Shown: piece by piece, positions 16,987 through 42,494 of the stretch
How positions within the stretch are numbered: the first letter of the stretch is position 1
Layout: every line of letters begins with the position of its first letter
From: Motilimonas eburnea
GTDB taxonomy: Bacteria; Pseudomonadota; Gammaproteobacteria; Enterobacterales; CBDFNC01
Reading direction: 5' to 3'
Length of the DNA stretch: 64,000 bases
Assembly: GCF_021295345.1 (NCBI RefSeq)
Contig: NZ_JAIMJB010000006.1
Coordinates: forward strand, 25,892 to 89,891
Notes under the pieces: generated by a model
Seen by the model: only the letters and a program-made list of their open reading frames with translations
Databases searched by the model: none
Told to the model about the DNA's origin: nothing
Translations under genes and position numbers: made by a program

Positions 16987-17093
16987 AAGCTAGCTCGCGA
17001 TTGGGTACTTGGTAACAATAGTACAGACCAAACAACAACGGCGCCATGGGCGCCGCTGTACCTAAACTAAAATACGTAATTAATGGTAAGCCA

Positions 17094-26531: not shown

Positions 26532-28115
26532 GTGAAGTACCAAATTATTGCTGGGATTATTTTATTTCTTGGCGCCACTCTCTCAATTGGTTCATGGCAC
26601 TACCTGAAATGCTACGAAACCCAATTTATTCAATCGGAAGTGGCAAGCCAAAGCCATAACATCGCCAAGGTCATCAAGGTTCAACTGACCGAACAAGTAC
26701 AATCGTTGAAGCGCATGGCAAAGCGCTGGGAATACAACAATGGCACCCCATTTGATCAATGGCTATTTGATGCCATGAACTTCATGACCTACGAACAGGC
26801 TTACCACAGCCTGGCCTGGGTAGATAAATACAATGAAATCCAATGGGTTGCACCAATAAAACAGGTCGGTGAAGTCAACAAGCTACTCAATGAAGTAAAC
26901 CAGTACCATAACAACGCGCTCTCACAAGCGAAGCAAAGCCAAACCGTCGCGATTTCGCAAAGTTTAGAGCTAGCCCAAGACGGCAAAGGCTTTGTGGTGA
27001 TCATCCCCCTATTCCCCAAAGGCCAATTTGATGGGTATCTGATCGGCATTTTTAGCTTCAATCAATTGATGAGCGTGATCCTAGAAACCGGCCACTTTGA
27101 TACGCCCATCACCATGATGGAGTCTGGCCAAATTGTCTATCAGCAAGTGCCAGAAGACACCCGTGTCGATCAAAATATGCTACAGACAAAACTGCCCGTG
27201 TTTGGTCGCCATTGGGAGATCTACAACTGGCCTTCACAATCTTTACTCACCAAAAGTAAAAGTTTATTACCGGCCATGGTGCTCACTTTTGGTTTATGTA
27301 TTTCATTCTTACTGTCATTTTCATTTTACTTTGCCCGCCAAGTTGAGCGCAAAAAACACGAACTAGAAATGAAGAATGAAGAGTTACGTTTGAAAAACAA
27401 GGAGATTGCCAACACCCAATCGCAGCTTGTCCATTCCACAAAACTGGCCTCACTGGGAGAAATGGCAACGGGGATCGCCCATGAGCTCAATCAACCCTTA
27501 CAAGTGATCAGCATGAATGCTGAAATGGGACCCGAATACCTTGCTCAAGGTAAAACCAACCGTGTGGTCAAGGCATTCACCGATATTATGCAGCAAGTCG
27601 ACCGAGCACAAAGTATCATTAAACAACTGCGCTGCTTTGGTCGTGATTCGGCTCACGATGAACATCAAAGCATTAGTTCAGAAGAGCTAATAAAAAGCAG
27701 CTTAATGTTTTTAAAGCGCCAATTTACCAGTAAAAACATCGAAGTCAGAGAAAACATCGCGCCAGCCCTGCCGCAAATAAAGTGCAATAAAGTGCAAATC
27801 GAACAGGTATTGCTGAACTTACTGGTGAATGCCCGTGATGCGGTAGAAAATTGCGAAGAAAAAGTGGTGGGTATTAAAGCCTTTCAAAAAGATCGTCGAC
27901 TCTATATCGAAGTCTATGACAACGGCACGGGGATCCCGCAAGCCGCTCTCGATAAAATATTTGATCCTTTCTTCACCACTAAAGAAGTCGGTAAAGGCAC
28001 TGGATTAGGTTTGTCCATCAGCCATGCCATTATCGAACAACACGGCGGTGAAATTTCCGTAGAAAGTCAGCCCGCTAAAGGCACTCAGTTTCTGGTGCAA
28101 TTACCTTTGAACTAA
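26532..28115 (+). CDS. orphan sensor histidine kinase with a large periplasmic sensing domain
   Basis: TM1 (aa 5-22), a ~220-aa periplasmic domain, TM2, a coiled-coil, a HisKA H-box (GIAHELNQPLQ) and a HATPase_c (N, G1, G2 boxes). No adjacent response regulator. Confidence 0.8.
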   Translation: MKYQIIAGIILFLGATLSIGSWHYLKCYETQFIQSEVASQSHNIAKVIKVQLTEQVQSLKRMAKRWEYNNGTPFDQWLFDAMNFMTYEQAYHSLAWVDKYNEIQWVAPIKQVGEVNKLLNEVNQYHNNALSQAKQSQTVAISQSLELAQDGKGFVVIIPLFPKGQFDGYLIGIFSFNQLMSVILETGHFDTPITMMESGQIVYQQVPEDTRVDQNMLQTKLPVFGRHWEIYNWPSQSLLTKSKSLLPAMVLTFGLCISFLLSFSFYFARQVERKKHELEMKNEELRLKNKEIANTQSQLVHSTKLASLGEMATGIAHELNQPLQVISMNAEMGPEYLAQGKTNRVVKAFTDIMQQVDRAQSIIKQLRCFGRDSAHDEHQSISSEELIKSSLMFLKRQFTSKNIEVRENIAPALPQIKCNKVQIEQVLLNLLVNARDAVENCEEKVVGIKAFQKDRRLYIEVYDNGTGIPQAALDKIFDPFFTTKEVGKGTGLGLSISHAIIEQHGGEISVESQPAKGTQFLVQLPLN

Positions 28116-29426: not shown

Positions 29427-29454
29427 AAAAAAATGCCCAACGCTGGGGTTGGGC
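29427..29454 (-). terminator. rho-independent terminator (minus strand), copy 1 of a duplicated ~40-bp element
   Basis: Minus strand: GCCCAAC-CCCAGC-GTTGGGC followed by ATTTTTTT. Confidence 0.6.
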
Positions 29455-29512: not shown

Positions 29513-29540
29513 AAAAAAATGCCCAACGCTGAGGTTGGGC
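29513..29540 (-). terminator. rho-independent terminator (minus strand), copy 2 of the duplicated element, ~100 bp downstream of the small ORF at 29644
   Basis: Minus strand: GCCCAAC-CTCAGC-GTTGGGC followed by ATTTTTTT. Copy 2 sits 86 bp from copy 1 and includes the flanking TAAGGG. Confidence 0.6.
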
Positions 29541-29643: not shown

Positions 29644-29907
29644 TTACATAGGGTTAATGACCTTCTCACCATTACTCCAAACGGTTTTAGCCTTGGCCTT
29701 AGTTGCAAAGGGTCCCTTGGCATTGCGCACCGCAGCAACCAATAGTAGCGTCATGCCCGCCAATAACTGCATACCCAGCAATAGAACTAAAAGCGGCAGT
29801 GCTAAGAAAAAGAAAGTCACTAAAAGAAGGCTTCTTAGCACGGCCTGAAAACCACTACGTGATTGATTCTGAAGTAATACTTGCATATAAGACGAATAAG
29901 CTTTCAT
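29644..29907 (-). CDS. small hypothetical membrane protein (87 aa)
   Basis: One or two hydrophobic helices and a basic C-terminus. Followed on its strand by the two terminators above. No recognised family. Confidence 0.35.
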   Translation of the reverse strand: MKAYSSYMQVLLQNQSRSGFQAVLRSLLLVTFFFLALPLLVLLLGMQLLAGMTLLLVAAVRNAKGPFATKAKAKTVWSNGEKVINPM

Positions 29908-30256
29908 AAGGCTCCTCTATGGGTTGCTGCGGCCATTGACAGTCTCGTCAATCGTTGGTACTTGATTTGGTCAACAAAACAGCAACCTTGTTAAGTTGAC
30001 GACATCTTATAACCCCATTAGTAAATATCCGGTGTTTACAGGATTAACTTTCGTTAATTAGCGCAAGGAATAATCAAGCAATAAAACAACTGGTTGTACA
30101 GATTGTGATGGTAGCGTTATAGATAGAAAAAACGACAACAAATAGTCAAAACCACAATTGCGCCAACTATGTATAGCTGATATAAACAGGCATTTATTTT
30201 TGATTAGTTGATCATCTTCAGCAGAATAATTCTTGATATAAGGTAAGGGTTACATA

Positions 30257-30859
30257 ATGAGCATGTTTTATAGTCTTGCATTTGCCTTTCCAACTGCCCT
30301 TTTTACTGCTTTTGTACTGCTCATTTCTCTTTATTGGGCCGTGACTGTGATTGGTATGACGGAAATTGAGATGCTCGATGTTGATGACTCCTTGCTCGAT
30401 TTTTCCGGTTTAATGGCCAAGCTCAAACTCGATGGCGTGCCCGTCACCATTGCTTTGTCATTACTGTTTTATTTCTCTTGGGTTGTCAGCCTCATTATTC
30501 AAAATCAACTTAACCAAATGTTAGCGCCAGGGATCACCTACTATGGTTTTGGCCTGCTCGCGATGCTCGTCAGTTTATTACTCGGCGATCTCATCGCTAG
30601 CCAATGTGTTAAACCATTGCGCAAGATCTTTCGTGACCAAGAGGTACTCAGTAAACAAGACCTTGTCGGTAAAACGGCCATCGTCAGAACAACCAGCGTG
30701 ACCGATAGTTTTGGTGAAGCCAACTTTAATGATGGCGGCGCCGGAATCATTATAAAAATAAGAGCACATCAACCTAACCAACTTAATCGTGGCGACTCAG
30801 TGTTACTGGTGGAATATTTGCAAGAGCAAGATTCCTATATTGTCACCGCCCATTTGTAA
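30257..30859 (+). CDS. yqiJ: NfeD/YqiJ-like inner-membrane protein (membrane domain plus C-terminal OB-fold), partner of the flotillin
   Basis: 200 aa: multiple N-terminal TM helices then a soluble ~70-aa beta-rich C-terminus. Only 22 bp upstream of the SPFH gene, which is the YqiJ-YqiK arrangement. Confidence 0.65.
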   Translation: MSMFYSLAFAFPTALFTAFVLLISLYWAVTVIGMTEIEMLDVDDSLLDFSGLMAKLKLDGVPVTIALSLLFYFSWVVSLIIQNQLNQMLAPGITYYGFGLLAMLVSLLLGDLIASQCVKPLRKIFRDQEVLSKQDLVGKTAIVRTTSVTDSFGEANFNDGGAGIIIKIRAHQPNQLNRGDSVLLVEYLQEQDSYIVTAHL

Positions 30860-30880: not shown

Positions 30881-33121
30881 ATGTTAGATATCACTACCAT
30901 ATTGATCATTGTCGGCATCGGCTTTGGCATCTTGTTGGGCTTTGCTTTATTGGTTAAAGCCTTTTATATCAAGGTACCTCAGGGCACGGCCTTGATCGTT
31001 AACACCACTCAAACCACACCTAAGGTTCGCTTCACGGGTGCCCTTGTTATCCCCGTGATCCACAAGATGGAAAAAATGCGTATATCCTTGATCACGCTAG
31101 AGATAGATCGCCGAGGTAAAGATGGCCTTATCTGTTTAGATAACATGCGCGCCGACATTACCGTTGCCTTCTATTTACGTGTAAACGAAACAGCTGAAGA
31201 CGTACTTAAAGTCGCCAAATCCATCGGTGCCGATCGCGCTTCCGATAAAGATGCAGTGAACGAGTTATTTAATGCCAAATTCTCTGAGGCATTAAAAACC
31301 GTGGGTAAAAAAATGGAGTTCTTACAACTGTTTGAAGAGCGAGCATTTTTCCGCGATGAGATTGTTAAAACCATAGGTAATGACTTAAACGGTTATGCCC
31401 TTGAAGACGTGGCGATCGATTACTTAGAGCAAACGCCAAAATCCGCTCTAGATCCTAACAACATCATGGACTCGGAAGGTATTCGTAAAATCACCGAAGT
31501 CACCTCCAAAGAGAACGTTAAAACCAACGAATACATTCGTGATGAAGAGCGTGCCATCAAAAAGAAAAACGTTGAAACCATTGAGCATTTACTCGTGCTT
31601 GATCGCCAAGAGAAAGAAGCACGAGCGAAACAAGAGCGTGAAGTGGCCAACATTAAAGCGCGCGAGAAGTCTGAACAGCTTAAGGTGGAAGAAGAAGAGC
31701 GCCTCAAGGCCGAATCAGCACGTATTCAAACCGAGCAAAATATTGCCATCCAAGAAGAAAACAAACTTCGTGAAATTGAAGTGTCGCAGCAAAACCGCGA
31801 ACGTGCGATTGGCGTTGAGCAAGAGCGGGTACAACGTGCCAAAGATCTTGAAGTGGTATCACGCGAACGTGAAGTCGCGCTGCAAACCATAGAGAAAGAG
31901 CGTGCCCTCGAAGTTGAGAAGAAAGAAATCGCCAACGTGGTACGTGAGCGTATCGCCGTTGAGAAAACCGTGGCTGAAGAAGAAGAGCGCATTAAAGAAG
32001 TACGTGAAGTCTCTGAAGCCGATCGTAACCGCCAAGTGGTGATCCTACAGGCCGAAGCACAAGCCCAAGAAGAGCTAGTTAAACAGGTTAAACAAGCCGA
32101 AGCCGATGAAATTAAAGCGCGCCACGAAGCGCAAAAAATCATCACTATGTCCCAAGCCGATCTCGAAGCTGCAGCGAAAAATGCCGACGCCATGAAGAAA
32201 ATGGCCGAAGGTATCGAAGCTGAAAACTCAGCACCGGGTCTGGCCGAAGCCCGCGTGAAAGAAGCCCTAGCCGATGCCCTAGAGAAAGAAGGCCTAGCCA
32301 AAGCTAAGGTAGAGCAAGAAACCTTAGTGGCTCGCGCCCAAGGTGATGAGCAAGTGGGTCTGGCTAAAGCGCGCGTACTCGAAGCGAACGCCAGCGCCAA
32401 AGAAAAAGATGGCCTTGCCGAAGCCAAAGTATTGGCTGAAAAACTCACAGCACAAGCTCAAGGTGATAAAGATATCGGTCTTACTGAGGCCATGGTATTG
32501 GCTGAGAAATTGAGCGCTCAAGCCAAAGGCGATAAAGACATTGGCTTGGCTAAAGCCTTGGCTTCTCGCGAGCTAGGTACTGCCGAAGCGGACGTGTTAG
32601 CGCTGAAACTGTCTGCCCAAGCTAAGGGTGATAAAGAGCAAGGCATGGCAGAAGCGGAAGTACTCAGTGCCAAATTCCACGCCGAAGCCCAAGGTCTGGT
32701 TGAGAAATTCAGCGCCATGGCAACCATGTCAAAAGAAGCTCGCGAGCACGAAGAGTTCCGTATGCAGCTTGAGAAAGACTTTGAGCAAGCCATGCAAGCC
32801 ATTAGCGTTAATAAGGACGTTGCTGTCCAGCAAGCGCAAGTGCTGTCTTCTGCCCTTGAAAAAGCCAACATCGACATCGTGGGAGGCCAAGGCGATTACT
32901 TCAACTCGTTAAGTAAAGCCCTGACCGTCGGTAAGTCCATCAATGGTCTGGTTGGTAAAACACCTTCGGTTGCGGCATTGCTGAATAAATTCATTGGCGG
33001 TGAAGAGTCAAAGCTATCGCCAGAGCAAACCGCAAAACAAAACTCATCTGATGTATTAGGTGGCTTATTAAACGAAAAAGCCAATGCAAACCAAGCAACT
33101 TCCGAGTCTAAAGACGCTTAA
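30881..33121 (+). CDS. yqiK: flotillin-like SPFH/band-7 protein (YqiK/FloT family), unusually long (746 aa) with an extended E/A/K-rich coiled-coil and imperfect ~21-aa repeats
   Basis: N-terminal TM, then SPFH core (...KVPQGTALIVNTTQ...ISLITLEIDRRGKDGLICLDNMRADITVAFYLRV...). Long EA-repeat region AQGD(K/E)(D/Q)(I/V)GL(A/T)(E/K)A(K/M)VLA(E)KLSAQ repeated about 5 times. Confidence 0.85.
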   Translation: MLDITTILIIVGIGFGILLGFALLVKAFYIKVPQGTALIVNTTQTTPKVRFTGALVIPVIHKMEKMRISLITLEIDRRGKDGLICLDNMRADITVAFYLRVNETAEDVLKVAKSIGADRASDKDAVNELFNAKFSEALKTVGKKMEFLQLFEERAFFRDEIVKTIGNDLNGYALEDVAIDYLEQTPKSALDPNNIMDSEGIRKITEVTSKENVKTNEYIRDEERAIKKKNVETIEHLLVLDRQEKEARAKQEREVANIKAREKSEQLKVEEEERLKAESARIQTEQNIAIQEENKLREIEVSQQNRERAIGVEQERVQRAKDLEVVSREREVALQTIEKERALEVEKKEIANVVRERIAVEKTVAEEEERIKEVREVSEADRNRQVVILQAEAQAQEELVKQVKQAEADEIKARHEAQKIITMSQADLEAAAKNADAMKKMAEGIEAENSAPGLAEARVKEALADALEKEGLAKAKVEQETLVARAQGDEQVGLAKARVLEANASAKEKDGLAEAKVLAEKLTAQAQGDKDIGLTEAMVLAEKLSAQAKGDKDIGLAKALASRELGTAEADVLALKLSAQAKGDKEQGMAEAEVLSAKFHAEAQGLVEKFSAMATMSKEAREHEEFRMQLEKDFEQAMQAISVNKDVAVQQAQVLSSALEKANIDIVGGQGDYFNSLSKALTVGKSINGLVGKTPSVAALLNKFIGGEESKLSPEQTAKQNSSDVLGGLLNEKANANQATSESKDA

Positions 33122-33139
33122 TGTTGCCATTGTTTATCT

Positions 33140-33205
33140 GCCGACTTGAGCCTTCAAGTCGGCACTAAAGTAAAGGCGCTAAAGTAAAAAGCACTAAAGT
33201 AAAGG
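33140..33205 (+). promoter_or_regulatory. 10-bp-stem hairpin (GCCGACTTGA-GCCT-TCAAGTCGGC, no U-tract) immediately followed by three tandem 14-15-bp direct repeats (GCACTAAAGTAAAGG / CGCTAAAGTAAAAA / GCACTAAAGTAAAGG) ending 4 bp before the giant ORF start codon
   Basis: Seen directly in the sequence. Sits in the 88-bp gap between the floT stop and the 1673-aa ORF start. Function (attenuator, processing site, operator or translational element) is inferred. Confidence 0.4.
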
Positions 33206-33209
33206 ATGC

Positions 33210-36200
33210 ATGATGTCGGATCACACTGTTGCAGAGAATGAACAAGATCTTGCCGCCGTTGCCGAAGGCGGCGCCTACCAAGTTATTCGCGCTCGCCTTA
33301 ACCAGCAAGGCAACGAGCTAGAGCAAAAAACCCAAAAACTCAATCAAGCCAGACTGAAAGAGTTTGGCCGCGAAGACATGCACGTACTTGGCCGAGTTCG
33401 CGTGCGCACTGAAAACAACTGCCAAGCCCGCGACATCGTCTGCGCGGGAGATTATTTACTGTTTGGCTACAATGTTTTTATCGGTCTCAAACAAGAAATT
33501 AAAATATCCGACGTCTTTGGTCTCTATAAGCTCAACCACACCGACGCCGGCTATGAAATGCACCATGAGCCGATCGCTGGAAGCTTTTTAGACAACCCCA
33601 GATTTGACCAAGACTTCACCGAGCTTTACACCTATTACAAAGAAGCTCGCCTACTTAGACTCACCATTCGCGATGGTAAGCTGCTGGCCAGTTTTCAGAT
33701 TGGCCTAAAAATGTCGGATGTCAGGGTGTTTCGCTGGAGCATCAGTAGCGATGGTAAAACCCTAGAATACATAGACAACCGCGGCGAGCGCGACCTCGTG
33801 CCGCCGGCCCAATACGATTTTGAATGGCAAGAATGTAGCCGTGAAAACGAAGTGGCGGGACGTTTCCCCCACATGAATATTTTAGACACCTTGTTTGTAG
33901 AAACCACCCAAGGTGATCTGACCGTCAAGATAGAAAACAATACCGACTCAGGCCTAGGCATCTACGCCGAAGACGTTGAAGACGACAACCAATCCCTTGA
34001 TGATGCGCGCTTTTTATATGCCGAAGTGGGCTCGCTGATCCTATTAAAGATACTGCCTTATCGCGAAGAAAAGTGGCGCTACTTGGTCTTTAACCGCAAC
34101 ACTGAAACCGTGGTGCGCATTGACCATATTGGCCACGCCTGTCGCCAGTTGCCTGAAAATCACGGCATCATCTTCCCCGGCGGTTATTACCTGCAAAATG
34201 GCGATTACAAAACCTTTGATGATGATATTACCGGCCTTGAATATCGCCAAACCATCAAGAGCCCTAATGGCGAAGACGTGTTGTATGTGTTTTATGAGCC
34301 AATCGAAGGCAAAGTCGGCCTTTATGCCTATAACCTGATCAACAAAAGCTTAGAAAACCCCTTGTTTGGTCACGGCTACGCCGCCCTAAATGATGGCCGC
34401 GTGGTGCTGTTTTATGCCGAAGGTGAGCCGACTCGCGTACACCCCATGCAAATTTGGCAAACGCCATTTTGCTCCGACGAGTACGCCAGCGCCCAGCCAA
34501 CTAAACAGAGCTTTTACGGCAAAATCGGCAACGCCGAACTCGTACGCGGCATCTCGGAATTATTTAGCACAGTTAAAGCCATCAACAACCAAACCGTTTC
34601 CACTAAGCTCTACAGCGAGTTGATTAAAAACGTCAACCGCATGTTTGATAGCTATCATTGGATGGCGGCACAACAAGTCGATGGTATCGAAAGCCTGCTG
34701 CGTCAAATTGCGGCCACGGCAGAGCTCGTGCTTGATGAGTTTGAAAAAGTTGAAACCATTCGCCAGCAAGCGCGCCAAGCCTTGCAACAAGCGCAGCAGC
34801 AACAAAGCAAGATATTATCTGAGATCACCCCTGATTCGTGGCAGACACCGGAAAAGTTTGTTGGCGGCCTTGATGCCATACGCAAACAAAAAGGCCACTT
34901 GCTGACCATCAAAACCATGCGTTACATGGAAGCCGAGCCATTAGCGCAAATGGGGCAAAAGCTGGAGCAAGCCGAGGCTAGCCTGAGCCAAAAAACCGTG
35001 GAGTTTTTGGCCAAAGAATCTTCATTAGCGCCCTATAACGATAAGCTAGCCAGCTTAAATACCGAGCTTGAAAAAGTGGTGTCGGTGGCCGAACTAGAGC
35101 CCGTTGCCGAGCAGCTTGAGCAAATGGCGGCCGGACTGGATTTACTGTCCGAGCTGATGGCAACCTTAAAGGTCAATGATGCCACGGTACGCACCCGCAT
35201 CATCGATACCATTTCGGAGATTTATGGCCGCTTAAACCAAACCAAGGCCAATGCGAAACATAAAAAGCAAAGCCTTGGCAGCGCCGAATCCCTAGCGCAG
35301 TTTTCTGCGCAATTTAAGCTGTTCAGCCAAAGTATTACCAATGCCTTGGGTCTGGCCAATACACCCGAAAAAGCCGATGAACAACTATCGCGCCTGTTGG
35401 TGCAGCTTGAAGAGTTAGAGAGTCAATTTAGCGAGCAGGAAGAATTTCTCACGGATATTCTGACCAAACGTGAAGAAGTCATAGAAAGCTTTGAAAGCCA
35501 TCGCCAACGTATGGTCGAAGCGCGCCAACGCAAGGCTAGCACGTTAAAAGACGCGGCCGAGCGGATCTTAGCCAGCATTGCCCGCCGGGTGCAAAAGTTC
35601 ACAGAACTAGAGCAGCTCAATACCTTTTTCGCTTCCGATGCCCTCGCCCTTAAAATTTACGATCTAGTGGCGCAGCTGCGCGAGATTGACGATTCGGTCA
35701 AAGCCGATGACATCGAAGCCAAATTTAAAAACAGCAAAGACCAAGCCATTCGCTCGCTGCGTGATAAAAGCGAAATCTTTGAAGACGGCGGCAACGTTAT
35801 CAAACTGGGGCCACGCCATAAGTTTACCGTGAACACCCAAGAGCTGGATCTCACCTTACTGCCTAAAGGTGATGAGCTAGTGTTCCACTTAACCGGTACC
35901 GACTACTTTGATGTTGCCAGTGACGCCGAGCTAAATCGTCTGCAAGATTACTGGACCCAAGAAATTGAATCAGAAACCAAGCAGGTTTATCGCGCCGAGT
36001 ACTTGGTTAAACAAATACTGGATAGCGCCGAACGAAATGAAGCAGGTTTAAGCACAGAGCAGCTAAGATTAGCACAAACGGATCCAGCCCAATTAAACCA
36101 ATTGGTCCGCGATTTTGCCGCGCCGCGCTACAAAGAAGGCTACGAACGCGGTATTCATGATCACGATGCCAGCTTGATTTTAAGTCAGCTGTTACCGGCT

Positions 36201-38231
36201 CTAAGTCAAGCCGATGTGCTCAGGTTTCCGCCATTAAGCCGTGGATTTAGCGCCATTTTTTGGGCTAACTGCCAACAAGATACGCCGATGCAAACTTGGC
36301 CAGAGCGGGCCAAATCGGCATTGCGTATGGAAGCCATCTTTAACTCAAGTGACGCGAAGCATTTACTTGAGCAAGAAATTAAACAAGCGCAGCAAGCCTT
36401 TGCCAAAGCCAATGAACTGCCCTTGGATAACACCGCCATTGATCTTAGCGCCCGCTATTTAGTGCAAGAGCTAGCCAAGGAGCCAGTGGTATTTGCCACC
36501 AGTAAATACGCCGACCATCTGGCGCAAGAGCTCAGACGCGCCATGGACACAGAGTCTTGGAATTCCTACCAGCATAGTTTAGAAAAACTCAAAGGTAAGA
36601 TAGGTCAGCGCTGGGCCCTAACTCAAGCTTGGCTGCAAGCCTTAGTCAGTAATAAAGCCATGGCAAAATGGCAAGCCTACATTCCAGAAGCCGTGGCCTT
36701 GATTAACGGTGAAGGCCGCCTTAGCCGCCGCGTCCATGAAGTCGAGCTAGAGTTTCAGGTAGAGGGCTTAATGGGCCAGCATAGCCGGATAAAAGATCGT
36801 AAGCTTGATCTTTCTTTAGATGACTTTTTGCAGCGCCTTGAACATCACCAACAAGCCGTATTACCCGGCTACAACGAGTTCTTAAGTGTTCGTAATCAGG
36901 TCACTCAAAAGCAAAAAACACAGCTGCGCTTAAGCGAGTTTAAGCCTAGGCCGCTGTCGTCTTTTGTACGAAATAAGTTAATCAATGATGCGTATTTGCC
37001 CATCATAGGTGATAACTTGGCCAAACAAATGGGTACAGTGGGCGAAAGTAAGCGAACCGATTTGATGGGCTTGCTCATGCTTATCTCCCCACCGGGCTAT
37101 GGTAAAACCACCTTGATGGAATACATCGCCAGCCGGTTGGGCTTGATTTTTATGAAAATCAACTGTCCCTCTATCGGTCATGTGGTGGACTCGCTCGATC
37201 CCGCGCAGGCGCCCAACGCCACCGCCAAAGCCGAGTTAATTAAACTCAACCTAGGCTTAGAAATGGGTAACAACGTGATGCTGTATCTCGATGATATTCA
37301 GCACACTAACCCTGAATTTTTACAAAAATTCATTTCTTTGTGTGATGGCACGAGGCGCATCGAAGGTATCTGGCAAGGCCAGCCAAAAACCTATGATCTG
37401 CGCGGTAAAAAGTTCTGCGTGATCATGGCGGGTAACCCTTACACCGAATCCGGTGAAGCATTTCAAATCCCCGACATGCTGGCCAACCGCGCCGACATAT
37501 ACAACCTAGGTGATATTTTAGGTGGCATGGATGAGGCCTTTGCCTTGAGTTACCTTGAAAATGGCATGACCTCCAACCCCGTACTGGCGCCACTGGCGAC
37601 GCGTTCACAGCAAGATTTCTATAAGCTGGTTGAGCTGGCCAAAGGCAATCAAGTGGATAGCAGCGAATTAGAGCACGGCTACAGCGGCGCCGAGCTGAAT
37701 GAAATCACTGGCGTGTTGGCCAAGTTACTGCAAATTCAACAAGTGGTACTGGCCGTCAACCAAAGCTATATTGCCTCGGCGGCCCAAGCCGATAAGTATC
37801 GCACCGAGCCGCCCTTTAAGCTGCAAGGCAGTTATCGCAACATGAACAAGATGGCCGAAAAAGTCTCTTCGGTCATGAATGATGACGAGCTGATGCAACT
37901 CATTGAAGATCATTACCTAGGTGAAGCGCAAATGTTGGCCGCGAGCGCCGAGGAAAACTTACTCAAATTGGCCGAGCTGCGCGGTAACATGACACCAGAG
38001 CAAGCTCAGCGCTGGCAACAAATCAAAGATGATTATGTTAAGCATCAGACATTGGGTGGCGACAGTGATGTTACCCTCAAGGCCGTGTCGCAATTGTTAG
38101 ATATGAATGCCAACCTGAACAGTATTAACGATACCTTAAGCCAAACCCGTTATCGCTTTAAACGTTCCACCACAGAAACGGGTAAAACTCAGGTCAGCAT
38201 CAGCAAAAAGCCAAAGCATGTGAAGGAATAA
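33210..38231 (+). CDS. giant (1673-aa) multidomain cytoplasmic protein: N-terminal ~430-aa beta-rich domain, ~800 aa of Q/E/L/A-rich coiled-coil/helical repeats, C-terminal MoxR/AAA_5-like P-loop ATPase module plus a ~300-aa helical tail
   Basis: Continuous ORF. Walker A LISPPGYGKTTLMEY at aa ~1290-1300 (nt ~37086-37112). Walker B-like VMLYLDDIQH (DD rather than DE) at aa ~1356-1363. Sensor-1-like CVIMAGNP. No TM or signal peptide. Family not recognised. Confidence 0.8.
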   Translation: MMSDHTVAENEQDLAAVAEGGAYQVIRARLNQQGNELEQKTQKLNQARLKEFGREDMHVLGRVRVRTENNCQARDIVCAGDYLLFGYNVFIGLKQEIKISDVFGLYKLNHTDAGYEMHHEPIAGSFLDNPRFDQDFTELYTYYKEARLLRLTIRDGKLLASFQIGLKMSDVRVFRWSISSDGKTLEYIDNRGERDLVPPAQYDFEWQECSRENEVAGRFPHMNILDTLFVETTQGDLTVKIENNTDSGLGIYAEDVEDDNQSLDDARFLYAEVGSLILLKILPYREEKWRYLVFNRNTETVVRIDHIGHACRQLPENHGIIFPGGYYLQNGDYKTFDDDITGLEYRQTIKSPNGEDVLYVFYEPIEGKVGLYAYNLINKSLENPLFGHGYAALNDGRVVLFYAEGEPTRVHPMQIWQTPFCSDEYASAQPTKQSFYGKIGNAELVRGISELFSTVKAINNQTVSTKLYSELIKNVNRMFDSYHWMAAQQVDGIESLLRQIAATAELVLDEFEKVETIRQQARQALQQAQQQQSKILSEITPDSWQTPEKFVGGLDAIRKQKGHLLTIKTMRYMEAEPLAQMGQKLEQAEASLSQKTVEFLAKESSLAPYNDKLASLNTELEKVVSVAELEPVAEQLEQMAAGLDLLSELMATLKVNDATVRTRIIDTISEIYGRLNQTKANAKHKKQSLGSAESLAQFSAQFKLFSQSITNALGLANTPEKADEQLSRLLVQLEELESQFSEQEEFLTDILTKREEVIESFESHRQRMVEARQRKASTLKDAAERILASIARRVQKFTELEQLNTFFASDALALKIYDLVAQLREIDDSVKADDIEAKFKNSKDQAIRSLRDKSEIFEDGGNVIKLGPRHKFTVNTQELDLTLLPKGDELVFHLTGTDYFDVASDAELNRLQDYWTQEIESETKQVYRAEYLVKQILDSAERNEAGLSTEQLRLAQTDPAQLNQLVRDFAAPRYKEGYERGIHDHDASLILSQLLPALSQADVLRFPPLSRGFSAIFWANCQQDTPMQTWPERAKSALRMEAIFNSSDAKHLLEQEIKQAQQAFAKANELPLDNTAIDLSARYLVQELAKEPVVFATSKYADHLAQELRRAMDTESWNSYQHSLEKLKGKIGQRWALTQAWLQALVSNKAMAKWQAYIPEAVALINGEGRLSRRVHEVELEFQVEGLMGQHSRIKDRKLDLSLDDFLQRLEHHQQAVLPGYNEFLSVRNQVTQKQKTQLRLSEFKPRPLSSFVRNKLINDAYLPIIGDNLAKQMGTVGESKRTDLMGLLMLISPPGYGKTTLMEYIASRLGLIFMKINCPSIGHVVDSLDPAQAPNATAKAELIKLNLGLEMGNNVMLYLDDIQHTNPEFLQKFISLCDGTRRIEGIWQGQPKTYDLRGKKFCVIMAGNPYTESGEAFQIPDMLANRADIYNLGDILGGMDEAFALSYLENGMTSNPVLAPLATRSQQDFYKLVELAKGNQVDSSELEHGYSGAELNEITGVLAKLLQIQQVVLAVNQSYIASAAQADKYRTEPPFKLQGSYRNMNKMAEKVSSVMNDDELMQLIEDHYLGEAQMLAASAEENLLKLAELRGNMTPEQAQRWQQIKDDYVKHQTLGGDSDVTLKAVSQLLDMNANLNSINDTLSQTRYRFKRSTTETGKTQVSISKKPKHVKE

Positions 38232-38234
38232 ATC

Positions 38235-38921
38235 ATGGACCAACAACATATAGAGCAAGTATTGCTGGCTAGTCTTGAAGACAACAAGCTCGATCGGGAT
38301 GAAAAACATGCCCTTGCCGAGTTAACTCAAAGCTTGCAAACCCAACCCGATAACATCAGCTTTATTCGCAATAAAGCCTTTGCTTTGCTATTGGCCAGCC
38401 ATGACTTTAATGAGGAGCAGTTTCGTGCCATTAAATGGCTGGAAAACGTGGTCAAAACCTTAGATAAAAACAGCCAGCAACCTAGCATCGTCGCCGATGC
38501 GTGCTTTAGCCCGGGCACAGATTGTTTAAATCGGATCGAGAGTTTGTGCCAACAAGCTAGGCGCAGTATCGATATCTGTGTGTTTACGATTTCGTGTAAC
38601 GAAATCACCGATGCGATATTGCAAGCCCACCAGCGCGGCATCACGGTGCGCATTATTTCTGATAATGATAAGCGTAATGACAAGGGCTCTGACGTCTATC
38701 GCTTAAGCGACGCAGGCATTCCTGTGGTGGTGGATAAGACCGACCATCATATGCACCACAAGTTTGCCCTGTTTGACCAAAAAGTGTTGCTCAACGGCAG
38801 CTTTAACTGGACCCGTAGCGCGTCTAAATACAATCAAGAGAACATCGCGACCACCGACAATCCTAAATTGGTTGCCGCCTTTAGCCGAGAGTTTGACCGC
38901 CTTTGGCATAAATTAGGTTAG
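38235..38921 (+). CDS. Nuc-like phospholipase-D-family nuclease (single HKD motif) with a ~90-aa N-terminal helical extension
   Basis: HxK(x4)D(x6)GSxN motif HHKFALFDQKVLLNGSFNWTRSA at nt ~38752-38820. Start is 4 bp after the giant ORF stop, with an AGGA RBS overlapping that stop (translational coupling). Confidence 0.8.
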   Translation: MDQQHIEQVLLASLEDNKLDRDEKHALAELTQSLQTQPDNISFIRNKAFALLLASHDFNEEQFRAIKWLENVVKTLDKNSQQPSIVADACFSPGTDCLNRIESLCQQARRSIDICVFTISCNEITDAILQAHQRGITVRIISDNDKRNDKGSDVYRLSDAGIPVVVDKTDHHMHHKFALFDQKVLLNGSFNWTRSASKYNQENIATTDNPKLVAAFSREFDRLWHKLG

Positions 38922-39111
38922 TTCCCGTCTAGGCCAGTTGCTCTGCACTGGCCTAATCAAACCTGCCCCACAAACATAAACAATAATTAAGTATGCCCTG
39001 TCGCGATAAGTTGCTATGTTAACCCGCTTACTCAAGCGTACATTCAGTTGGACTTCACTGAGTTCAAACTTTAATCGTTAGCCACTTTACTTTTAGCGCA
39101 CGCATTGCAGA

Positions 39112-41955
39112 ATGAGCAAGGTGCTTGCTTGGCAAAAAGCTGTTTCAGGGAAATTTATGCTAGACCGGAGTTGTCGAAATCTCATCCGCTATTATCGAGC
39201 TTGTTACCAAGCCGACAATCGAGATTTAACTCTATTTAATGTTTATCACCGTGATTGTGAGTACACTCGCTTTATGCAAGGGCGAGAAACCCTGATCAGC
39301 AATGATATTCCTCGCCTGCCCTTAGCAAAAAGCTATGGCGAAACCCTGTATCAAGCGCAAAACACCTACCAAAGAGAAAAGACCTTACTTTATTGCAGCT
39401 TTTTTTTGCTCGGTAAGTTACCTTCGAGTTACCCCGGAAAACGCAAGGTGTGCGCACCGCTACTCTATTATCATGCTCAAGTCAGCATAGATAACAATGA
39501 GTACTATCTCAGCATAGATAAAAGTAAGCCCATCGTTAACTGGCCCTTATTGCGCTGGGCGTTAGCGGAAGGCAAACAGCCAAATGAGCCGGAGTTTATC
39601 ACTCAGGGCATCACCGAACTTGATGTGGCTAAACTGAGCCACTGGCTGAGTTCAATGAGCGATAAGATAAATTGCCTTGAATTATATCATTACCCCAATT
39701 TGACCAGTGAAGATGACATTGAGGCTAAACAGCATCAGGAAGGCGAATTTAACCTCGTCTCGGCTTCTGCGATCACCTTAGTCAAATACTCACTGGCTTC
39801 GCGGGGGATCTTACACGATCTCAAGGCGATGGCGGTCTCTTCCTACCTGCCACAATCGGTCAATATGCTACTCACGGGAGCACAACAAGCCACATCATAC
39901 CCTCGCCAATCATCAACCAGCGCACCCTCAACAGGGCGAGAATACCTCAGTGGTTTAACCGCAGCCGATCCCGATAATATTCCCGCATTACTCAGCCATG
40001 CCCAACGCCAAGCCTTGATCAATGCAGCACGTTTTCCTGTTAGCCAAATTGTTGGGCCACCGGGCACGGGCAAATCCTATACCATTGCCTGTTTAGCCCT
40101 AGAGCGCTATCTACAAGGTGAGTCGGTATTGGTGGTGGGACAAAACAATGAAAGCGTAAACATTGTTGGCGACAAAATAGAGGCCATGCTGGGCCAACAA
40201 GATTTTGTCGTACGAGTGGGTGATGCCAGTTATCACAAAAAATTAAAGCGCTATTTAAAAGACCTGCTCAGTGGCTACCTGACCCAACAAGAAAACCGAG
40301 CTAAGCAACATGGCAGTGAAAGCCTACTCAAGCAAAAACAAAAGATGCAGCGCCTCGAGAAGCAATTTGCCAAACGCTGTCAAAAAGCCATTCGTTACGG
40401 CATGCACACCTGGAAAGCGCAGCAACATGACTCGCTATGGAACCGCTTTAATGCATGGCGTGCAAAACGAGCCACCCTCAAACAAGATATTTTGTTTGAC
40501 GTATTTGCCGAGATAACCAAACAACAGCGTATTCGACACCTGGCCCTAGGCCATTATATTAGCCAAAGCCGTCGGCGACGCTTGCACCATGTGCTCAATC
40601 ACCACCGCGCGCAATTGAATCGATTTCGCGAAGCAATCAACGCCACCAATTCAAGTGAGCAAGCCAGCCGATTTGACACCATTGATTACCCCATTCTACT
40701 CAAGGCGATGCCGGTGTGGCTGGGCACCTTAGGTGACTTGCATCGAAGCTTGCCATTAAAAGCGGAATTGTTTGATTTGGTCATCATCGACGAAGCCAGC
40801 CAATGTGATATTGCCAGTACCTTGCCGGCCGTGTTTAGAGCTAAGCATGTCGTCATCGTAGGCGATGATAAGCAACTTAGGTTTATTTCGTTTTTATCTA
40901 AGGACAAGCAAGGGAAATTGCAATCGCGCTATGATTTATCAAACCAAACGGGTGAGTTCGATTATCGTAATGTCAGTGTGTTAGACCTAGCTAACCGTCA
41001 TATCAAGCAGCAACAGGCGATTGTTGTATTAGATGAACACTTTCGCAGCAAAAGTGCATTGATTGATTTTAGTAACCGTAAGTTTTACCACCAGCAGCTC
41101 AAAGTGATGCGCCATAAACCGGGCAATAACACGGACTATCCTTTATCGATAGTGCCTTGCCAAGGACAATATAAAAATGGCAAAAACCAACAAGAAGCGC
41201 TAGATGTCATGGCGTTTTTGCAGACCAAGCTACATCAACAGAGCGCCATGGGTTTACACTCCAGTATCGGCATTCTATCGCCTTTTCGTGAACAGACCAT
41301 GCTGTTGCAAAAGCTATTACCTCGGTATGCCACGCCCGACCAAATCAATCATCATCGCATAAAAATTGAAACCCCTTATGGTTTCCAAGGCGAAGAGCGC
41401 GACATCATACTACTGAGTATGTGTGTGGATGAACAAAGCAGCGGCCATCAATTTCGATATATCAATCGCCCTGATGTGTTTAACGTTGCGGTGACGCGCG
41501 CACGCGACGAACAATATGTTTTTTTATCAAGTCGGCCGCACCGTTTACCTTCACAATCGCTGTTATTTGAATACATCCACAGTATCGAACGGAATCATCA
41601 ATACGCGTTAGATGAAAACAACGATTTTGATGCCTTTCAGGCCGAAGTATCCCGATTGTTGACCTTAAATGGCATTAACACATGGAAAAACTACCCCATA
41701 GCAGGGGCAGAGCTTGATTTAATGTGCGAGTATGGAGATAAAACCTTAGCCATCGACTTGATTGGCTACCCAGGCGAATCTCAGGACTACTACCACCTCA
41801 GCCGCTACCAAATTTTTCAACGTGCTGGCCTAACCTTATATCCCCTGACCTATACTCGCTGGGTTAACCAAAAACACCGAGTATTAAAACAAATAATCCA
41901 ACTATTGGGGGCCAGCGAAACGGGCTTGACCAGTCAGGAAAACAGCATTTACTGA
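39112..41955 (+). CDS. Upf1/DNA2-like superfamily-1 helicase (DUF4011-like N-region, AAA_11/AAA_12 core) with a C-terminal DUF559/PD-(D/E)xK-like nuclease-fold domain
   Basis: Motif I GPPGTGKS (nt ~40054). Motif II VIIDEASQ (nt ~40780). Motif III VVIVGDDKQL. Motif V ILSPFREQ. Motif VI VAVTRAR. The C-terminal ~130 aa (...ELDLMCEYGDKTLAIDLIGYPGE...RYQIFQRAGLTLYPLTYTRW) resembles DUF559. Confidence 0.85.
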   Translation: MSKVLAWQKAVSGKFMLDRSCRNLIRYYRACYQADNRDLTLFNVYHRDCEYTRFMQGRETLISNDIPRLPLAKSYGETLYQAQNTYQREKTLLYCSFFLLGKLPSSYPGKRKVCAPLLYYHAQVSIDNNEYYLSIDKSKPIVNWPLLRWALAEGKQPNEPEFITQGITELDVAKLSHWLSSMSDKINCLELYHYPNLTSEDDIEAKQHQEGEFNLVSASAITLVKYSLASRGILHDLKAMAVSSYLPQSVNMLLTGAQQATSYPRQSSTSAPSTGREYLSGLTAADPDNIPALLSHAQRQALINAARFPVSQIVGPPGTGKSYTIACLALERYLQGESVLVVGQNNESVNIVGDKIEAMLGQQDFVVRVGDASYHKKLKRYLKDLLSGYLTQQENRAKQHGSESLLKQKQKMQRLEKQFAKRCQKAIRYGMHTWKAQQHDSLWNRFNAWRAKRATLKQDILFDVFAEITKQQRIRHLALGHYISQSRRRRLHHVLNHHRAQLNRFREAINATNSSEQASRFDTIDYPILLKAMPVWLGTLGDLHRSLPLKAELFDLVIIDEASQCDIASTLPAVFRAKHVVIVGDDKQLRFISFLSKDKQGKLQSRYDLSNQTGEFDYRNVSVLDLANRHIKQQQAIVVLDEHFRSKSALIDFSNRKFYHQQLKVMRHKPGNNTDYPLSIVPCQGQYKNGKNQQEALDVMAFLQTKLHQQSAMGLHSSIGILSPFREQTMLLQKLLPRYATPDQINHHRIKIETPYGFQGEERDIILLSMCVDEQSSGHQFRYINRPDVFNVAVTRARDEQYVFLSSRPHRLPSQSLLFEYIHSIERNHQYALDENNDFDAFQAEVSRLLTLNGINTWKNYPIAGAELDLMCEYGDKTLAIDLIGYPGESQDYYHLSRYQIFQRAGLTLYPLTYTRWVNQKHRVLKQIIQLLGASETGLTSQENSIY

Positions 41956-42494
41956 TCGCCTTGTAATAAATCGGGTGATAAAGACACCGAGCCTGACTCC
42001 GTGCTCACTAGCACTTCCCCATCTTGAACGGACACTTGCACATCCATGGTTTTTTGAAACAACTGGGCTAGCGCTTGCGTTTGCTCATAGGCAAGGTTGT
42101 ATACCGTCAGCTTAGGCAATTTAGCGAGTTGCTTTTGGTTTTGTTGCCACCAAATATCTGCACTGCCGCCGCCATAACTGTAAAGCACGACTTGTTTAGA
42201 TCTGGCGCAAGCTTTTTTCAAACGCTTCTCTTCTGGTGTGCCCAGTTCCACCCATAATTCAATGTCATCCGTTAAAGATTTAGCCCATAACTCAGGCTCA
42301 TCATCGGCACATAGGCCTTTAGTAAACGTGAGGTTATCCCTTGCCTGCAGGGCAAAGGCTAACAATCTAACCATCAAACGCTGGGCATTTTCCGAAGGAT
42401 GCTGAGCCAAGGTTAAATTGTAATCTTGGTATAAATGCGTGTCCATGTTGGCAAGTTGTAACCTTGCCTTGATAATCGTTGCGCCTATTGCCAT
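41949..42494 (-). CDS. yaeQ: YaeQ-family protein
   Basis: 181 aa, colinear with E. coli YaeQ (...QHPSE..R.M.R.LAF...PELW.KSL.D.I.LW.E.G.P...Q.K..V.Y.Y....W...). Convergent with the helicase gene, overlapping it by 7 bp. Confidence 0.85.
   Translation of the reverse strand: MAIGATIIKARLQLANMDTHLYQDYNLTLAQHPSENAQRLMVRLLAFALQARDNLTFTKGLCADDEPELWAKSLTDDIELWVELGTPEEKRLKKACARSKQVVLYSYGGGSADIWWQQNQKQLAKLPKLTVYNLAYEQTQALAQLFQKTMDVQVSVQDGEVLVSTESGSVSLSPDLLQGDQ

Follow-up and report, generated by a model that had tools for sequence, protein, structure and literature searches.

A single gene at positions 33210 to 38231 (+) of a 64,000-nucleotide stretch of the Motilimonas eburnea genome, which we call the window, encodes a giant ATPase that is 100% identical to the NCBI entry 'DNA repair ATPase [Motilimonas eburnea]'. 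The genes directly upstream of it encode a flotillin-like protein and a short membrane protein. This raises the question of whether the enzyme acts on DNA, as its product name states, or whether it serves the membrane proteins beside which it is encoded. An earlier interpretation made from the letters of the DNA alone (the sequence-only reading) implied a third possibility, that the locus takes part in defence.

The ATPase belongs to a named and widespread family

The reading frame of 1,673 residues is uninterrupted and opens with two consecutive start codons (ATG-ATG), with AAGGA lying 6 to 7 nucleotides 5' of them. The NCBI gene model begins at the second ATG, so that its otherwise identical product has 1,672 residues. 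We found no transmembrane segment, the 19-residue Kyte-Doolittle mean peaking at 1.35. The frame and the hydropathy together bear out the sequence-only reading, which had described one cytoplasmic protein of this length.

That reading recognised no protein family, whereas Pfam and NCBI both name one. The Pfam profiles DUF3686, DUF7902, AAA and AAA_5 match the protein, AAA_5 above its cut-off, and together with the NCBI identity and an alignment that is collinear with 75 homologues they make it a member of the DUF3686-DUF7902-AAA+ family, which is already named and widespread; its operon, too, appears in PMC11237479. Defining the family and its taxonomic spread, which had been suggested as a check, gave more than 5,491 homologues of the ATPase, 720 clusters at 50% identity that carry the N-terminal domain, and relatives in at least 591 species genomes from the Pseudomonadota, Myxococcota, Actinomycetota, Planctomycetota and Acidobacteriota and from a Clostridia MAG. 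Of 72,556 plasmid records, 13 gave a match, and most of these are megaplasmids or chromids; phage records held zero matches to the family. The copy on pQBR103 is accompanied by PspA, a rhomboid and a glutathionylspermidine synthase. A mobile-element origin for the locus was considered and set aside on these record counts and on the flanking genes of the window, which encode a lactonase, a histidine kinase, a PLP enzyme, an M50 peptidase, a GGDEF-EAL protein and Cus efflux components. Searching the PDB with the ATPase sequence returned only insignificant P-loop matches, and the PHROGs collection returned a clamp-loader P-loop match (E=6e-4) and nothing else.

Domain order and catalytic motifs

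The domain order proposed by the sequence-only reading is supported, as is the beta-rich nature of the N-terminal domain. This domain is DUF3686 (PF12458; aa 36-483; 33315..34658, +), which matches at E=4.1e-196 over profile positions 1-448 of 448. In the AF2 model (pLDDT 90.7) it consists of a long helix (aa 22-52), beta strands (58-417) and helices (423-499), with an atypical propeller-like core clasped by its N- and C-terminal helices. A charged helical stalk follows (aa ~484-859; 34659..35786, +), recognised from Pfam and composition. It includes DUF7902 (PF25472; aa 605-687; 35022-35270, +; E=8e-29), has zero Pro or Gly residues between aa 721 and 840, and is kept without gaps across the family alignment. 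About 800 residues of low-complexity coiled coil had been expected here, but charged helix is confined to the stalk, and the stalk itself is not of low complexity because its 40-residue entropy is 3.25-3.8 bits. Beyond it lies a confidently folded middle domain (aa 860-1235; 35787..36914, +; AF2, pLDDT about 90), in which a small beta subdomain precedes helical bundles; structural comparison of this domain gave no match, and we could recognise no relative of it. The AAA+ module, with an extended helical lid and tail (aa ~1236-1650; 36915..38159, +; Pfam AAA/AAA_5 and alignment), is the best-conserved part of the protein. The whole ATPase aligns collinearly and nearly gap-free with the 75 diverse homologues, at 32-88% identity.

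A motif scan bore out the presence of a single P-loop. Its Walker A motif, SPPGYGKTT (aa 1293-1301; 37086..37112, +), has Ser in place of the first Gly of the canonical GxxxxGK[ST], and both K1299 and S1293 are kept in 69 of 71 diverse homologues. The Walker B motif, MLYLDD (aa 1357-1362; 37278..37295, +), is followed by IQH and ends in Asp-Asp rather than Asp-Glu (D1361, D1362, Q1364 and H1365 each in 69/71). Sensor 1 is MAGNP (aa 1406-1410; 37425..37439, +), with N1409 kept in 69/71 and P1410 in 70/71. The sequence-only reading had found all three motifs and had rightly described the Walker B as hhhhDD and not DE; its residue numbers, however, are two too low, PPGYGKTT lying at aa 1294-1301 (the lysine being K1299, not K1297). 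LYLDDI lies at aa 1358-1363.

Between Walker B and sensor 1, two DSSP strands of the AF2 model (model residues 524-529 and 532-537) form a beta-hairpin (aa 1383-1396; 37356..37397, +), which we infer to be the pre-sensor-1 (PS1) hairpin. R1427 (37488..37490, +; 70/71), the last residue of PDMLANR, ends the modelled helix that follows sensor 1 and is a putative arginine finger, a role that we infer from AAA+ topology. A putative sensor-2 motif, GSYR (aa 1540-1543; 37827..37838, +), lies in the lid within L-Q-G-S-Y-R, which is invariant in the family alignment, and we take it to resemble the sensor 2 of MoxR and RuvB, G-x-[ST]-x-R. As a set, SPPGYGKT, DDIQH, MAGNPY and LQGSYR are kept in 69-70 of the 71 homologues.

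Since the Asp-Asp Walker B is conserved in 69 of 71 diverse members, it is a hallmark of the lineage and not a local mutation. MoxR, dynein and midasin have DE at this position. DnaA and the STAND NTPases, which are slow, regulated switches, likewise have Asp as the second acidic residue of their Walker B, and LYLDDIQH presumably resembles the DnaA motif LLIDDIQF. By analogy with these precedents the family may consist of switch-like ATPases; the remaining catalytic residues are invariant, and an active enzyme therefore fits equally well.

In fold comparisons the ATPase module most resembles MoxR proteins (CbbQ/NorQ), dynein and midasin, and all of its fold neighbours are AAA+ proteins, which together with the AAA_5 match supports the MoxR/AAA_5-like module of the sequence-only reading. 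The likeness to MoxR lies in the putative pre-sensor-1 hairpin and in MAGNP and LANR, which resemble the MoxR sensor-1 and Arg regions; the likeness to midasin and dynein lies in the giant size and the long helical linker. Identity to these proteins is, however, only 12-16%, and the ATPase differs from them in joining a single AAA+ module to unrelated N-terminal domains that span about 1,230 residues. The AF2 model, which is a prediction, shows no clear helix-2 beta-insert of the MoxR type; between strand 2 and helix 2 the chain is coil apart from one short helix (model residues 460-477). MoxR-type ATPases are normally partnered with a VWA protein. We saw no VWA/MIDAS partner among the window neighbours or in the Pfam tables of three loci (L001-L003), a point that counts against the role proposed below.

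A flotillin and an NfeD-like protein are encoded upstream

The ATPase gene is the third of a conserved triad. The first gene (30257..30859, +) encodes a short NfeD / YqiJ-YuaF-like membrane protein of 200 residues, with N-terminal transmembrane helices and a C-terminal soluble beta domain. Its assignment comes from synteny, its homologues lying directly 5' of the flotillin gene in 71 loci, and from its P. aeruginosa counterpart PA14_16160, which PMC13086221 terms a 'short NfeD'; the window protein had zero Pfam matches, the NfeD model included, and Pfam YqiJ_N was matched by 2 of 31 members of the NfeD-like family. The second gene (30881..33121, +) encodes a flotillin-like SPFH/Band-7 protein of 746 residues, which comprises an N-terminal transmembrane segment or hairpin, an SPFH domain, a long Ala/Glu/Lys-rich helical region and a conserved C-terminal tail. 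Residues 1-260 scanned alone matched Pfam Band_7 (E=2.6e-9), while the whole protein had no Pfam match, probably because of its composition bias. PDB searches with the flotillin, as single sequence and as profile, and with the NfeD-like profile found nothing. The flotillin homologue on pQBR103 is annotated 'SPFH domain-containing protein'.

Flotillin homologues lie directly 5' of the ATPase gene in 75 loci, with a median gap of 103 nt and an overlap in some loci, and the order NfeD-like, flotillin, ATPase holds in every locus with upstream DNA (about 72 of 83). This invariance points to work in membrane stress rather than in DNA repair or phage defence. A gene pair for a CesT/Tir-like DUF2170 protein and PspA lies 5' of the triad in about 36 loci, or about half; neither protein has a homologue within the 64-kb window. 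The Motilimonas locus is thus an abbreviated operon without PspA, to which genes for a phospholipase D (PLD) family enzyme, an SF1 helicase and YaeQ are added. Scanning the window for sigma-54 promoters gave 88 matches against 86 expected, with nothing convincing at 29900-30257. In some lineages the ATPase gene is followed by one for a rhomboid, a TelA-like protein or a MitoPLD/Zucchini-like PLD. The first two of these accessory proteins are membrane proteins, which counts for a membrane reading of the family.

Facultative genes are encoded downstream

In the window, the fourth and facultative gene of the operon (38235..38921, +) encodes a MitoPLD/Zucchini-like PLD-family enzyme of 228 residues with a single HKD motif (Pfam PLDc_2, E=7.5e-31). 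A 3-nt spacer separates the ATPase stop codon (TAA, 38229-38231) from its ATG at 38235, and AAGGA lies inside the last ATPase codons, in agreement with the coupling of the two genes that had been read from the sequence. In the PDB its matches are MitoPLD/Zucchini (E=3.8e-28, aa 93-226), Nuc (9e-12) and NucT (4e-9). The catalytic motif HxKxxxxD + GSxN is present in a single copy, and because there is one HKD motif the enzyme is presumably dimeric. Among 15 operon-linked homologues HMHHKFAxFD...NGSFNWTR is invariant, the window copy reading HHKFALFD...NGSFNWT. Unlike MitoPLD/Zucchini, the enzyme has no membrane anchor, and the operon-linked PLDs carry a specific conserved N-terminal extension of about 90 residues. 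Structures of MitoPLD/Zucchini are deposited as 'cardiolipin hydrolase', and the protein is also known as a piRNA nuclease; the conversion of cardiolipin to phosphatidic acid was the activity first reported for MitoPLD.

Of the 83 loci, 17 have a PLD gene 3' of the ATPase and 3 have a helicase gene. The helicase (39112..41955, +), which Pfam identifies as an SF1 enzyme (AAA_11/AAA_12) and whose C-terminus weakly matches the REase-like MTES_1575, is a rare add-on; apart from the window, only two Pseudomonas loci (L016 and L020) have it 3' of the PLD. A YaeQ-family protein (41949..42494, -; Pfam YaeQ, E=7.6e-73) is encoded convergently with the helicase and overlaps its end by 7 nt; in L016, too, a YaeQ gene (16724-17263; E=1.8e-63) adjoins the helicase. 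Whether the helicase belongs to the operon is uncertain, and the same is true of YaeQ. The PLD, the helicase with its weak REase-like match and YaeQ are enzymes of a nucleic-acid type, an observation that counts against a purely membrane role.

The locus corresponds to a published operon and probably to the bac operon

Ravi et al. (2024, PMC11237479) described a CesT/Tir-PspA-flotillin operon computationally, and their passages on it mention a phospholipase D (HKD) hydrolase 'in some Proteobacteria' and 'abbreviated operons' without PspA. The partners named in those passages match ours, the window holding the abbreviated form plus a PLD. The work they report there is comparative genomics only, and term searches of the article text returned no DD Walker B, no MitoPLD/Zucchini affinity and no rhomboid, TelA or helicase-YaeQ add-ons. 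Our analysis adds the domain order of the ATPase: propeller-like domain, helical stalk, middle domain and AAA+ module.

In P. aeruginosa, bacABCDEF (PA3732-PA3727) is one sigma-54 operon, and in a bacA mutant its products increase by a factor of 6 to 13 (PMC10948618). Phage infection induces PA3728-PA3732 (PMC12041424), PA3728 is entered as 'ATPase' (PMC8190622), and PA14_16180 is the SPFH protein PaFlo3 (BacD), paired with the short NfeD PA14_16160 (PMC13086221). Phenotypes of this system may be subtle, since deletion of paFlo3 lowered biofilm by only about 20% (PMC13086221).

Our Pseudomonas loci share the six-gene order of the bac operon: DUF2170, PspA, short NfeD, SPFH protein (PaFlo3), giant ATPase, and rhomboid and/or PLD. 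The PA14 RT-PCR primers fall on the orthologues in these loci, and in one locus (L032) a PA14_16180 primer is an exact match to the 3' end of the orthologue. Over its C-terminal 790 residues, the Motilimonas ATPase is 57-61% identical to its Pseudomonas homologues. Judged by the primers, the gene order and the 'ATPase' label, it is a probable orthologue of P. aeruginosa BacE (PA3728 / PA14_16190). The Motilimonas locus differs from the bac operon in that it lacks bacA/bacB and has no evident sigma-54 promoter.

A possible remodeller of flotillin scaffolds

From gene order and analogy, we propose, with a probability of roughly one half, that the ATPase uses ATP to remodel flotillin/PspA scaffolds at the membrane when the envelope is under stress. 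Its single MoxR/dynein/midasin-like AAA+ module would let it form a ring on the cytoplasmic side of the membrane, and its propeller-like N-terminal domain, carried on a helical stalk of roughly 380 residues, would dock onto the flotillin assembly and, where present, onto PspA. Nucleotide-dependent motion could then build, reshape or take apart the scaffold during envelope stress, much as Vps4 acts on ESCRT-III and midasin on pre-ribosomes. Hydrolysis might be slow or partner-stimulated owing to the Asp-Asp Walker B found across the family, so that the enzyme would serve as a timer or switch. Where the HKD enzyme is present, its substrate could be either a membrane lipid, with cardiolipin converted to phosphatidic acid, or nucleic acid.

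The systems on which this proposal draws are HflK/C-FtsH, Vps4-Snf7 and PspA-PspF, functional analogues in which an SPFH or PspA/ESCRT-III scaffold is genetically coupled to an AAA+ machine; such pairing is among the topics discussed in PMC11237479. The sequence link from the ATPase to FtsH, Vps4 and PspF is the AAA+ fold only, and the ATPase has no protease, MIT or sigma-54-interaction domain.

A more specific version of the proposal is tentative. By the same analogy, the DUF3686 protein could be a dedicated assembly and disassembly machine of the flotillin cage, a 'Vps4 for flotillin', whose propeller-like domain would read the flotillin/PspA polymer, whose Asp-Asp pair would act as a slow, partner-triggered switch and which, in lineages with the Zucchini-like HKD enzyme, might couple remodelling to local cardiolipin/phosphatidic-acid conversion. 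We know of no dedicated ATPase for any flotillin, bacterial or eukaryotic. The ATPase is a large conserved protein with a family-wide non-canonical catalytic motif, and it is inherited together with one flotillin subfamily in hundreds of species. P. aeruginosa is among them, and there the operon is phage-induced and affects biofilm, rhamnolipid and virulence traits. This co-inheritance and these traits make it an obvious candidate for the energy-consuming component.

Alternative roles

It is also conceivable, though in our judgment unlikely, that the ring works in client-directed quality control, extracting or unfolding membrane proteins of the flotillin/NfeD compartment for cleavage by a rhomboid or another protease. 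It is established that an SPFH cage can enclose an AAA+ protease (HflK/C-FtsH), and the arrangement would parallel FtsH caged by HflK/C and stomatin paired with an NfeD protease. A rhomboid gene does lie immediately 3' of the ATPase in 15 loci and beside PspA on pQBR103; the ATPase itself, however, lacks a protease domain, and no rhomboid is encoded in the window. In addition, the position predicted to be equivalent to pore loop 1 reads G-P-[AS]-[LI]-G-x-x-V-[TS]-S-L-D-P, with no aromatic residue of the kind found in threading unfoldases, and the best-matching folds, MoxR, dynein and midasin, belong to proteins that remodel rather than thread.

An anti-phage role, in which the scaffold would sense envelope damage and the ATPase would license the PLD, with the SF1 helicase/REase and YaeQ, against nucleic acid, seems to us quite improbable. 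The close spacing of the PLD start behind the ATPase stop, the recurrence of the PLD-helicase-YaeQ trio beside the operon in two Pseudomonas loci, weak DrmC/DpdK/MkoC-type matches of the PLD and partial MkoA/MkoC, Hhe and ProA-type matches of the helicase are consistent with it. The phage induction of the P. aeruginosa genes is consistent with it as well, although a PspA-type envelope-stress operon would show such induction anyway. Against this, the ATPase, flotillin and NfeD-like protein have zero matches in PADLOC-DB v2, the NCBIfam scores are far below their cut-offs, and 66 of 83 loci lack the PLD and 80 of 83 the helicase, whereas the membrane partners are invariant. The window neighbours are housekeeping genes, with no defence island or mobile element, the family is rare on plasmids and absent from the phage records as counted above, and the nearest solved relative of the PLD is MitoPLD/Zucchini. 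The sequence-only reading had itself held that conserved non-defence neighbourhoods would speak against its view, and the neighbourhood conserved here, NfeD-flotillin with or without DUF2170-PspA, is one of membrane stress. On this evidence the locus is not a new system and is unlikely to be a defence system.

That the protein is a true DNA-repair or SMC/Rad50-like ATPase, its long helical region being an SMC-type arm on DNA, is highly improbable: the Pfam one-line description of DUF3686 ('ATPase involved in DNA repair'), the NCBI product name and the adjoining helicase, PLD and YaeQ genes speak for it, but the protein has a single contiguous C-terminal AAA+ module and not an ABC/SMC head, zero SMC, Rad50 or ABC profile matches, RuvB-type matches limited to the P-loop region (16 bits against a cut-off of 282), no detected DNA-binding domain, and membrane proteins as its invariant partners. 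In the literature searched, no paper tied DUF3686 or PF12458 to repair or a 'DNA repair ATPase' to flotillin, and the way into the literature led through the neighbours DUF2170 and PspA. Both the defence and the DNA-repair readings are poorly supported, and the product name 'DNA repair ATPase', which is spreading through annotation, is probably misleading.

A giant AAA+ ATPase of a named and widespread family

The ORF listing and translation bear out a giant protein of 1673 aa encoded by a single ORF, as the sequence-only reading had claimed, with positions 33210-38231 of the forward strand translated without interruption. The ORF opens with two consecutive start codons (ATG-ATG) preceded by AAGGA, and the NCBI model of the identical protein (1672 aa) begins at the second of these. 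The gene is thus real and well-described, and its product is 100% identical to the NCBI entry "DNA repair ATPase [Motilimonas eburnea]," the organism being an Alteromonadales gammaproteobacterium. That reading had recognized no protein family, and this does not stand: both Pfam and NCBI place the ATPase in a named family. DUF3686 matches end to end at aa 36-483 (E=4e-196), DUF7902 matches aa 605-687 (E=8e-29), and AAA/AAA_5 matches aa 1289-1412. The ATPase is a member of a known, computationally described family and not an orphan.

Homologues number more than 5,491 proteins (threshold E<1e-5), the N-domain alone yields 720 clusters at 50% identity, and at least 591 genomes carry the family when each species is represented by one genome. 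Among the matches listed, carriers include Pseudomonas, Xanthomonadales, Providencia/Xenorhabdus, Comamonas, and Myxococcota, as well as Micromonospora, Planctomycetota, Acidobacteriota, and one Clostridia MAG. The family was not found in phages and is nearly missing from plasmids: it occurs in 13 of 72,556 records, most of them megaplasmids or chromids.

The ATPase aligns over its full length and nearly without gaps with 75 homologues (32-88% identity), and conservation is highest in the AAA+ module (65-78% column identity). By sequence, the protein has no relative among solved structures. After the DUF3686 domain, the supposed ~800 aa of low-complexity coiled-coil proved to be a charged helical stretch of ~380 residues (aa 484-859; entropy, 3.25-3.8 bits) that includes DUF7902. 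The following middle domain (aa 860-1235), a small beta subdomain with helical bundles, is confidently predicted (AF2 pLDDT ~90), and a fold search of the model detected no relative for it. The protein has one P-loop only and no transmembrane helix, its maximum 19-residue hydrophobicity mean of 1.35 being too low.

A conserved DD Walker B motif

The Walker A, Walker B, and sensor-1 motifs are present as had been proposed, although each lies two residues further on: Walker A PPGYGKTT at aa 1294-1301 (lysine K1299), Walker B LYLDDI at aa 1358-1363, and sensor 1 MAGNP at aa 1406-1410. We scored motif conservation over 71 diverse family members. Walker A (SPPGYGKTT), both Asp residues of Walker B (hhhhDDIQH), and the sensor-1 Asn (MAGNPY) were each conserved in 69/71, the Arg in PDMLANR in 70/71, and LQGSYR in the lid was invariant in one family alignment. 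The hhhhDD motif noted earlier is therefore no peculiarity of one protein; judged from alignment, the DD Walker B is a hallmark of the family, amid otherwise complete AAA+ catalytic equipment. DD might slow hydrolysis; DnaA and the STAND NTPases are switch-like enzymes in which DD has precedents. The nucleotide site has one more small change specific to the family: at S1293 (37086-37088), Ser replaces the first Gly of the canonical Walker A GxxxxGK[ST] (SPPGYGKT) in 69/71 members.

In an AF2 model of aa 860-1650 (pLDDT, 88.3; pTM, 0.74), a hairpin separates Walker B from sensor 1; the model's best PDB matches in Foldseek were CbbQ, RuvB, and NorQ (E ~1e-5). The earlier MoxR/AAA_5-like assignment is therefore supported by the modeled fold, which is predicted to be AAA_5-like. 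Of the MoxR features, a VWA partner, a Walker B with DE, and a discernible helix-2 insert are missing or unclear.

An invariant NfeD-flotillin-ATPase triad

Two genes precede the ATPase gene on the same strand. The first (30257-30859) encodes a 200-aa NfeD/YqiJ-like protein with transmembrane helices at the N terminus and a small soluble domain at the C terminus. The second (30881-33121) encodes a 746-aa protein that we regard as flotillin-like on domain evidence, since an N-terminal SPFH/Band_7 domain (E=2.6e-9, only when aa 1-260 were scanned alone) is followed by a long helical region. ORF calls from 83 loci were searched, with the proteins of the window as queries. The NfeD-like, flotillin, and ATPase genes occurred in that order in every locus with upstream DNA (~72), with a median flotillin-to-ATPase gap of 103 nt and occasional overlap of both genes. 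DUF2170-PspA preceded the triad in ~36 loci, PLD lay 3' of the ATPase in 17, and an SF1 helicase followed PLD in 3 (the window and two Pseudomonas loci). Neither PspA nor DUF2170 was found in the 64-kb window, where the operon is flanked by ordinary chromosomal genes.

The triad is thus invariant, whereas PspA, PLD, rhomboid, and helicase are facultative. We propose that the ATPase would form an AAA+ ring under the membrane, that it would contact the flotillin (and PspA) scaffold through its N-domain and stalk, and that it may remodel this scaffold during envelope stress. Alternatively, it might extract clients for rhomboid-type proteolysis. A membrane-triggered defence system with PLD and helicase as effectors, or literal DNA repair, are weak explanations because nucleic-acid enzymes accompany the operon only rarely and the core matches neither defence nor repair families; the operon is not a defence system, and the database name "DNA repair ATPase" is probably misleading. 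The ATPase, large and conserved and with an unusual conserved catalytic motif, is a candidate motor for flotillin/PspA scaffolds in bacteria.

Directly 3' of the flotillin stop lies a perfect 10-bp hairpin (33137-33160; GCCGACTTGA-gcct-TCAAGTCGGC), followed at 33161-33205 by three tandem copies of the 14-nt unit GGCACTAAAGTAAA that reach into the ATPase ribosome-binding site. Together, these elements (33137-33205) could set the flotillin:ATPase expression ratio.

Relation to published operons

Ravi et al. 2024 describe operons with CesT/Tir-PspA and a YqiJ/YuaF-type 3TM protein, to which a PLD (HKD) hydrolase is added in some Proteobacteria, and report that abbreviated operons lacking PspA are widespread (PMC11237479). 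The operon in the window is of this abbreviated type, with PLD in addition. In P. aeruginosa, the full six-gene order is that of bacABCDEF, which is sigma-54-dependent; BacA is a DUF2170 protein, BacB a PspA homologue, BacE PA14_16190, and BacF PA14_16200, and in a bacA mutant the level of every downstream product is raised 6- to 13-fold (PMC10948618). PA14_16160 is a "short NfeD," and deletion of PA14_16180, the SPFH protein PaFlo3, gives ~20% less biofilm (PMC13086221). Phage infection induces PA3728-PA3732 (PMC12041424), and PA3728, listed as "ATPase," has recurrent mutations among CF isolates (PMC8190622). Published PA14 RT-PCR primers map to the orthologous genes of the Pseudomonas loci compared here: the flotillin 3' end in locus L032 contains an exact match to the BacD/BacE forward primer, and 16/20 bases of the BacE/BacF forward primer match the ATPase 3' end of loci L016 and L017. 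Given this mapping, the "ATPase" listing, and the shared gene order, BacE is probably the DUF3686 ATPase.

Accessory genes and flanking features

The PLD gene (38235-38921) begins 3 nt past the ATPase stop, with AAGGA within the last ATPase codons. Its 228-aa product carries a single intact HKD motif that does not vary among 15 operon-linked homologues, together with a conserved extension of ~90 residues. The closest solved relatives are MitoPLD/Zucchini (E=3.8e-28, versus 9e-12 for Nuc and 4e-9 for NucT), a branch to which both cardiolipin hydrolysis and RNA cleavage are ascribed, so that, as far as homology goes, the label "nuclease" is an assumption.

A PLD-SF1 helicase-YaeQ trio adjoins the flotillin-ATPase operon in the window (38235-42494) and in the Pseudomonas loci L016 (13234-17263) and L020, and may be a separate module travelling with the operon. 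The helicase (39112-41955) is of the AAA_11/AAA_12 type with a weak C-terminal REase-like match, and the window's YaeQ gene (41949-42494) lies on the opposite strand with a 7-nt overlap at the helicase end.

A gene for a small intramembrane protease of the rhomboid family lies directly 3' of the ATPase in 15 loci (including L016, 12667-13233, and L003, 15353-15931), sometimes overlapping the ATPase stop. Since it sits between ATPase and PLD in several Pseudomonas, P. aeruginosa BacF could be either rhomboid or PLD. A zinc-ribbon protein gene is also recurrent downstream. L033 (12727-13491) and 8 other Xanthomonadales loci (Stenotrophomonas/Lysobacter-type) carry a gene that adjoins or overlaps the stop of the ATPase; it encodes a TelA-like protein, 212-258 aa long, whose Pfam TelA match (E=6e-6) falls below the cut-off. 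Megaplasmid pQBR103 of Pseudomonas fluorescens SBW25 (L084; NC_009444.1 85443-104335) has its own triad copy, fused to the other type of PspA operon: the triad comes after PspA, rhomboid, DUF2491, DUF350, DUF1190, and glutathionylspermidine synthase genes, and an MvaT/MvaU gene comes next.

The 1 kb of non-coding DNA 5' of the operon contains, on the reverse strand (29435-29454 and 29521-29540), a pair of terminator-like hairpins that are nearly identical (GCCCAACC[C/T]CAGCGTTGGGC plus a T-run) and spaced 86 nt apart; they may represent a REP-like repeat. A histidine kinase with a CHASE domain (AtoS/ZraS-like; 26532-28115), which has no adjoining cognate response regulator, is encoded 2 kb 5' of the operon, and the gene for a GGDEF-EAL protein (43839-46805) lies downstream.
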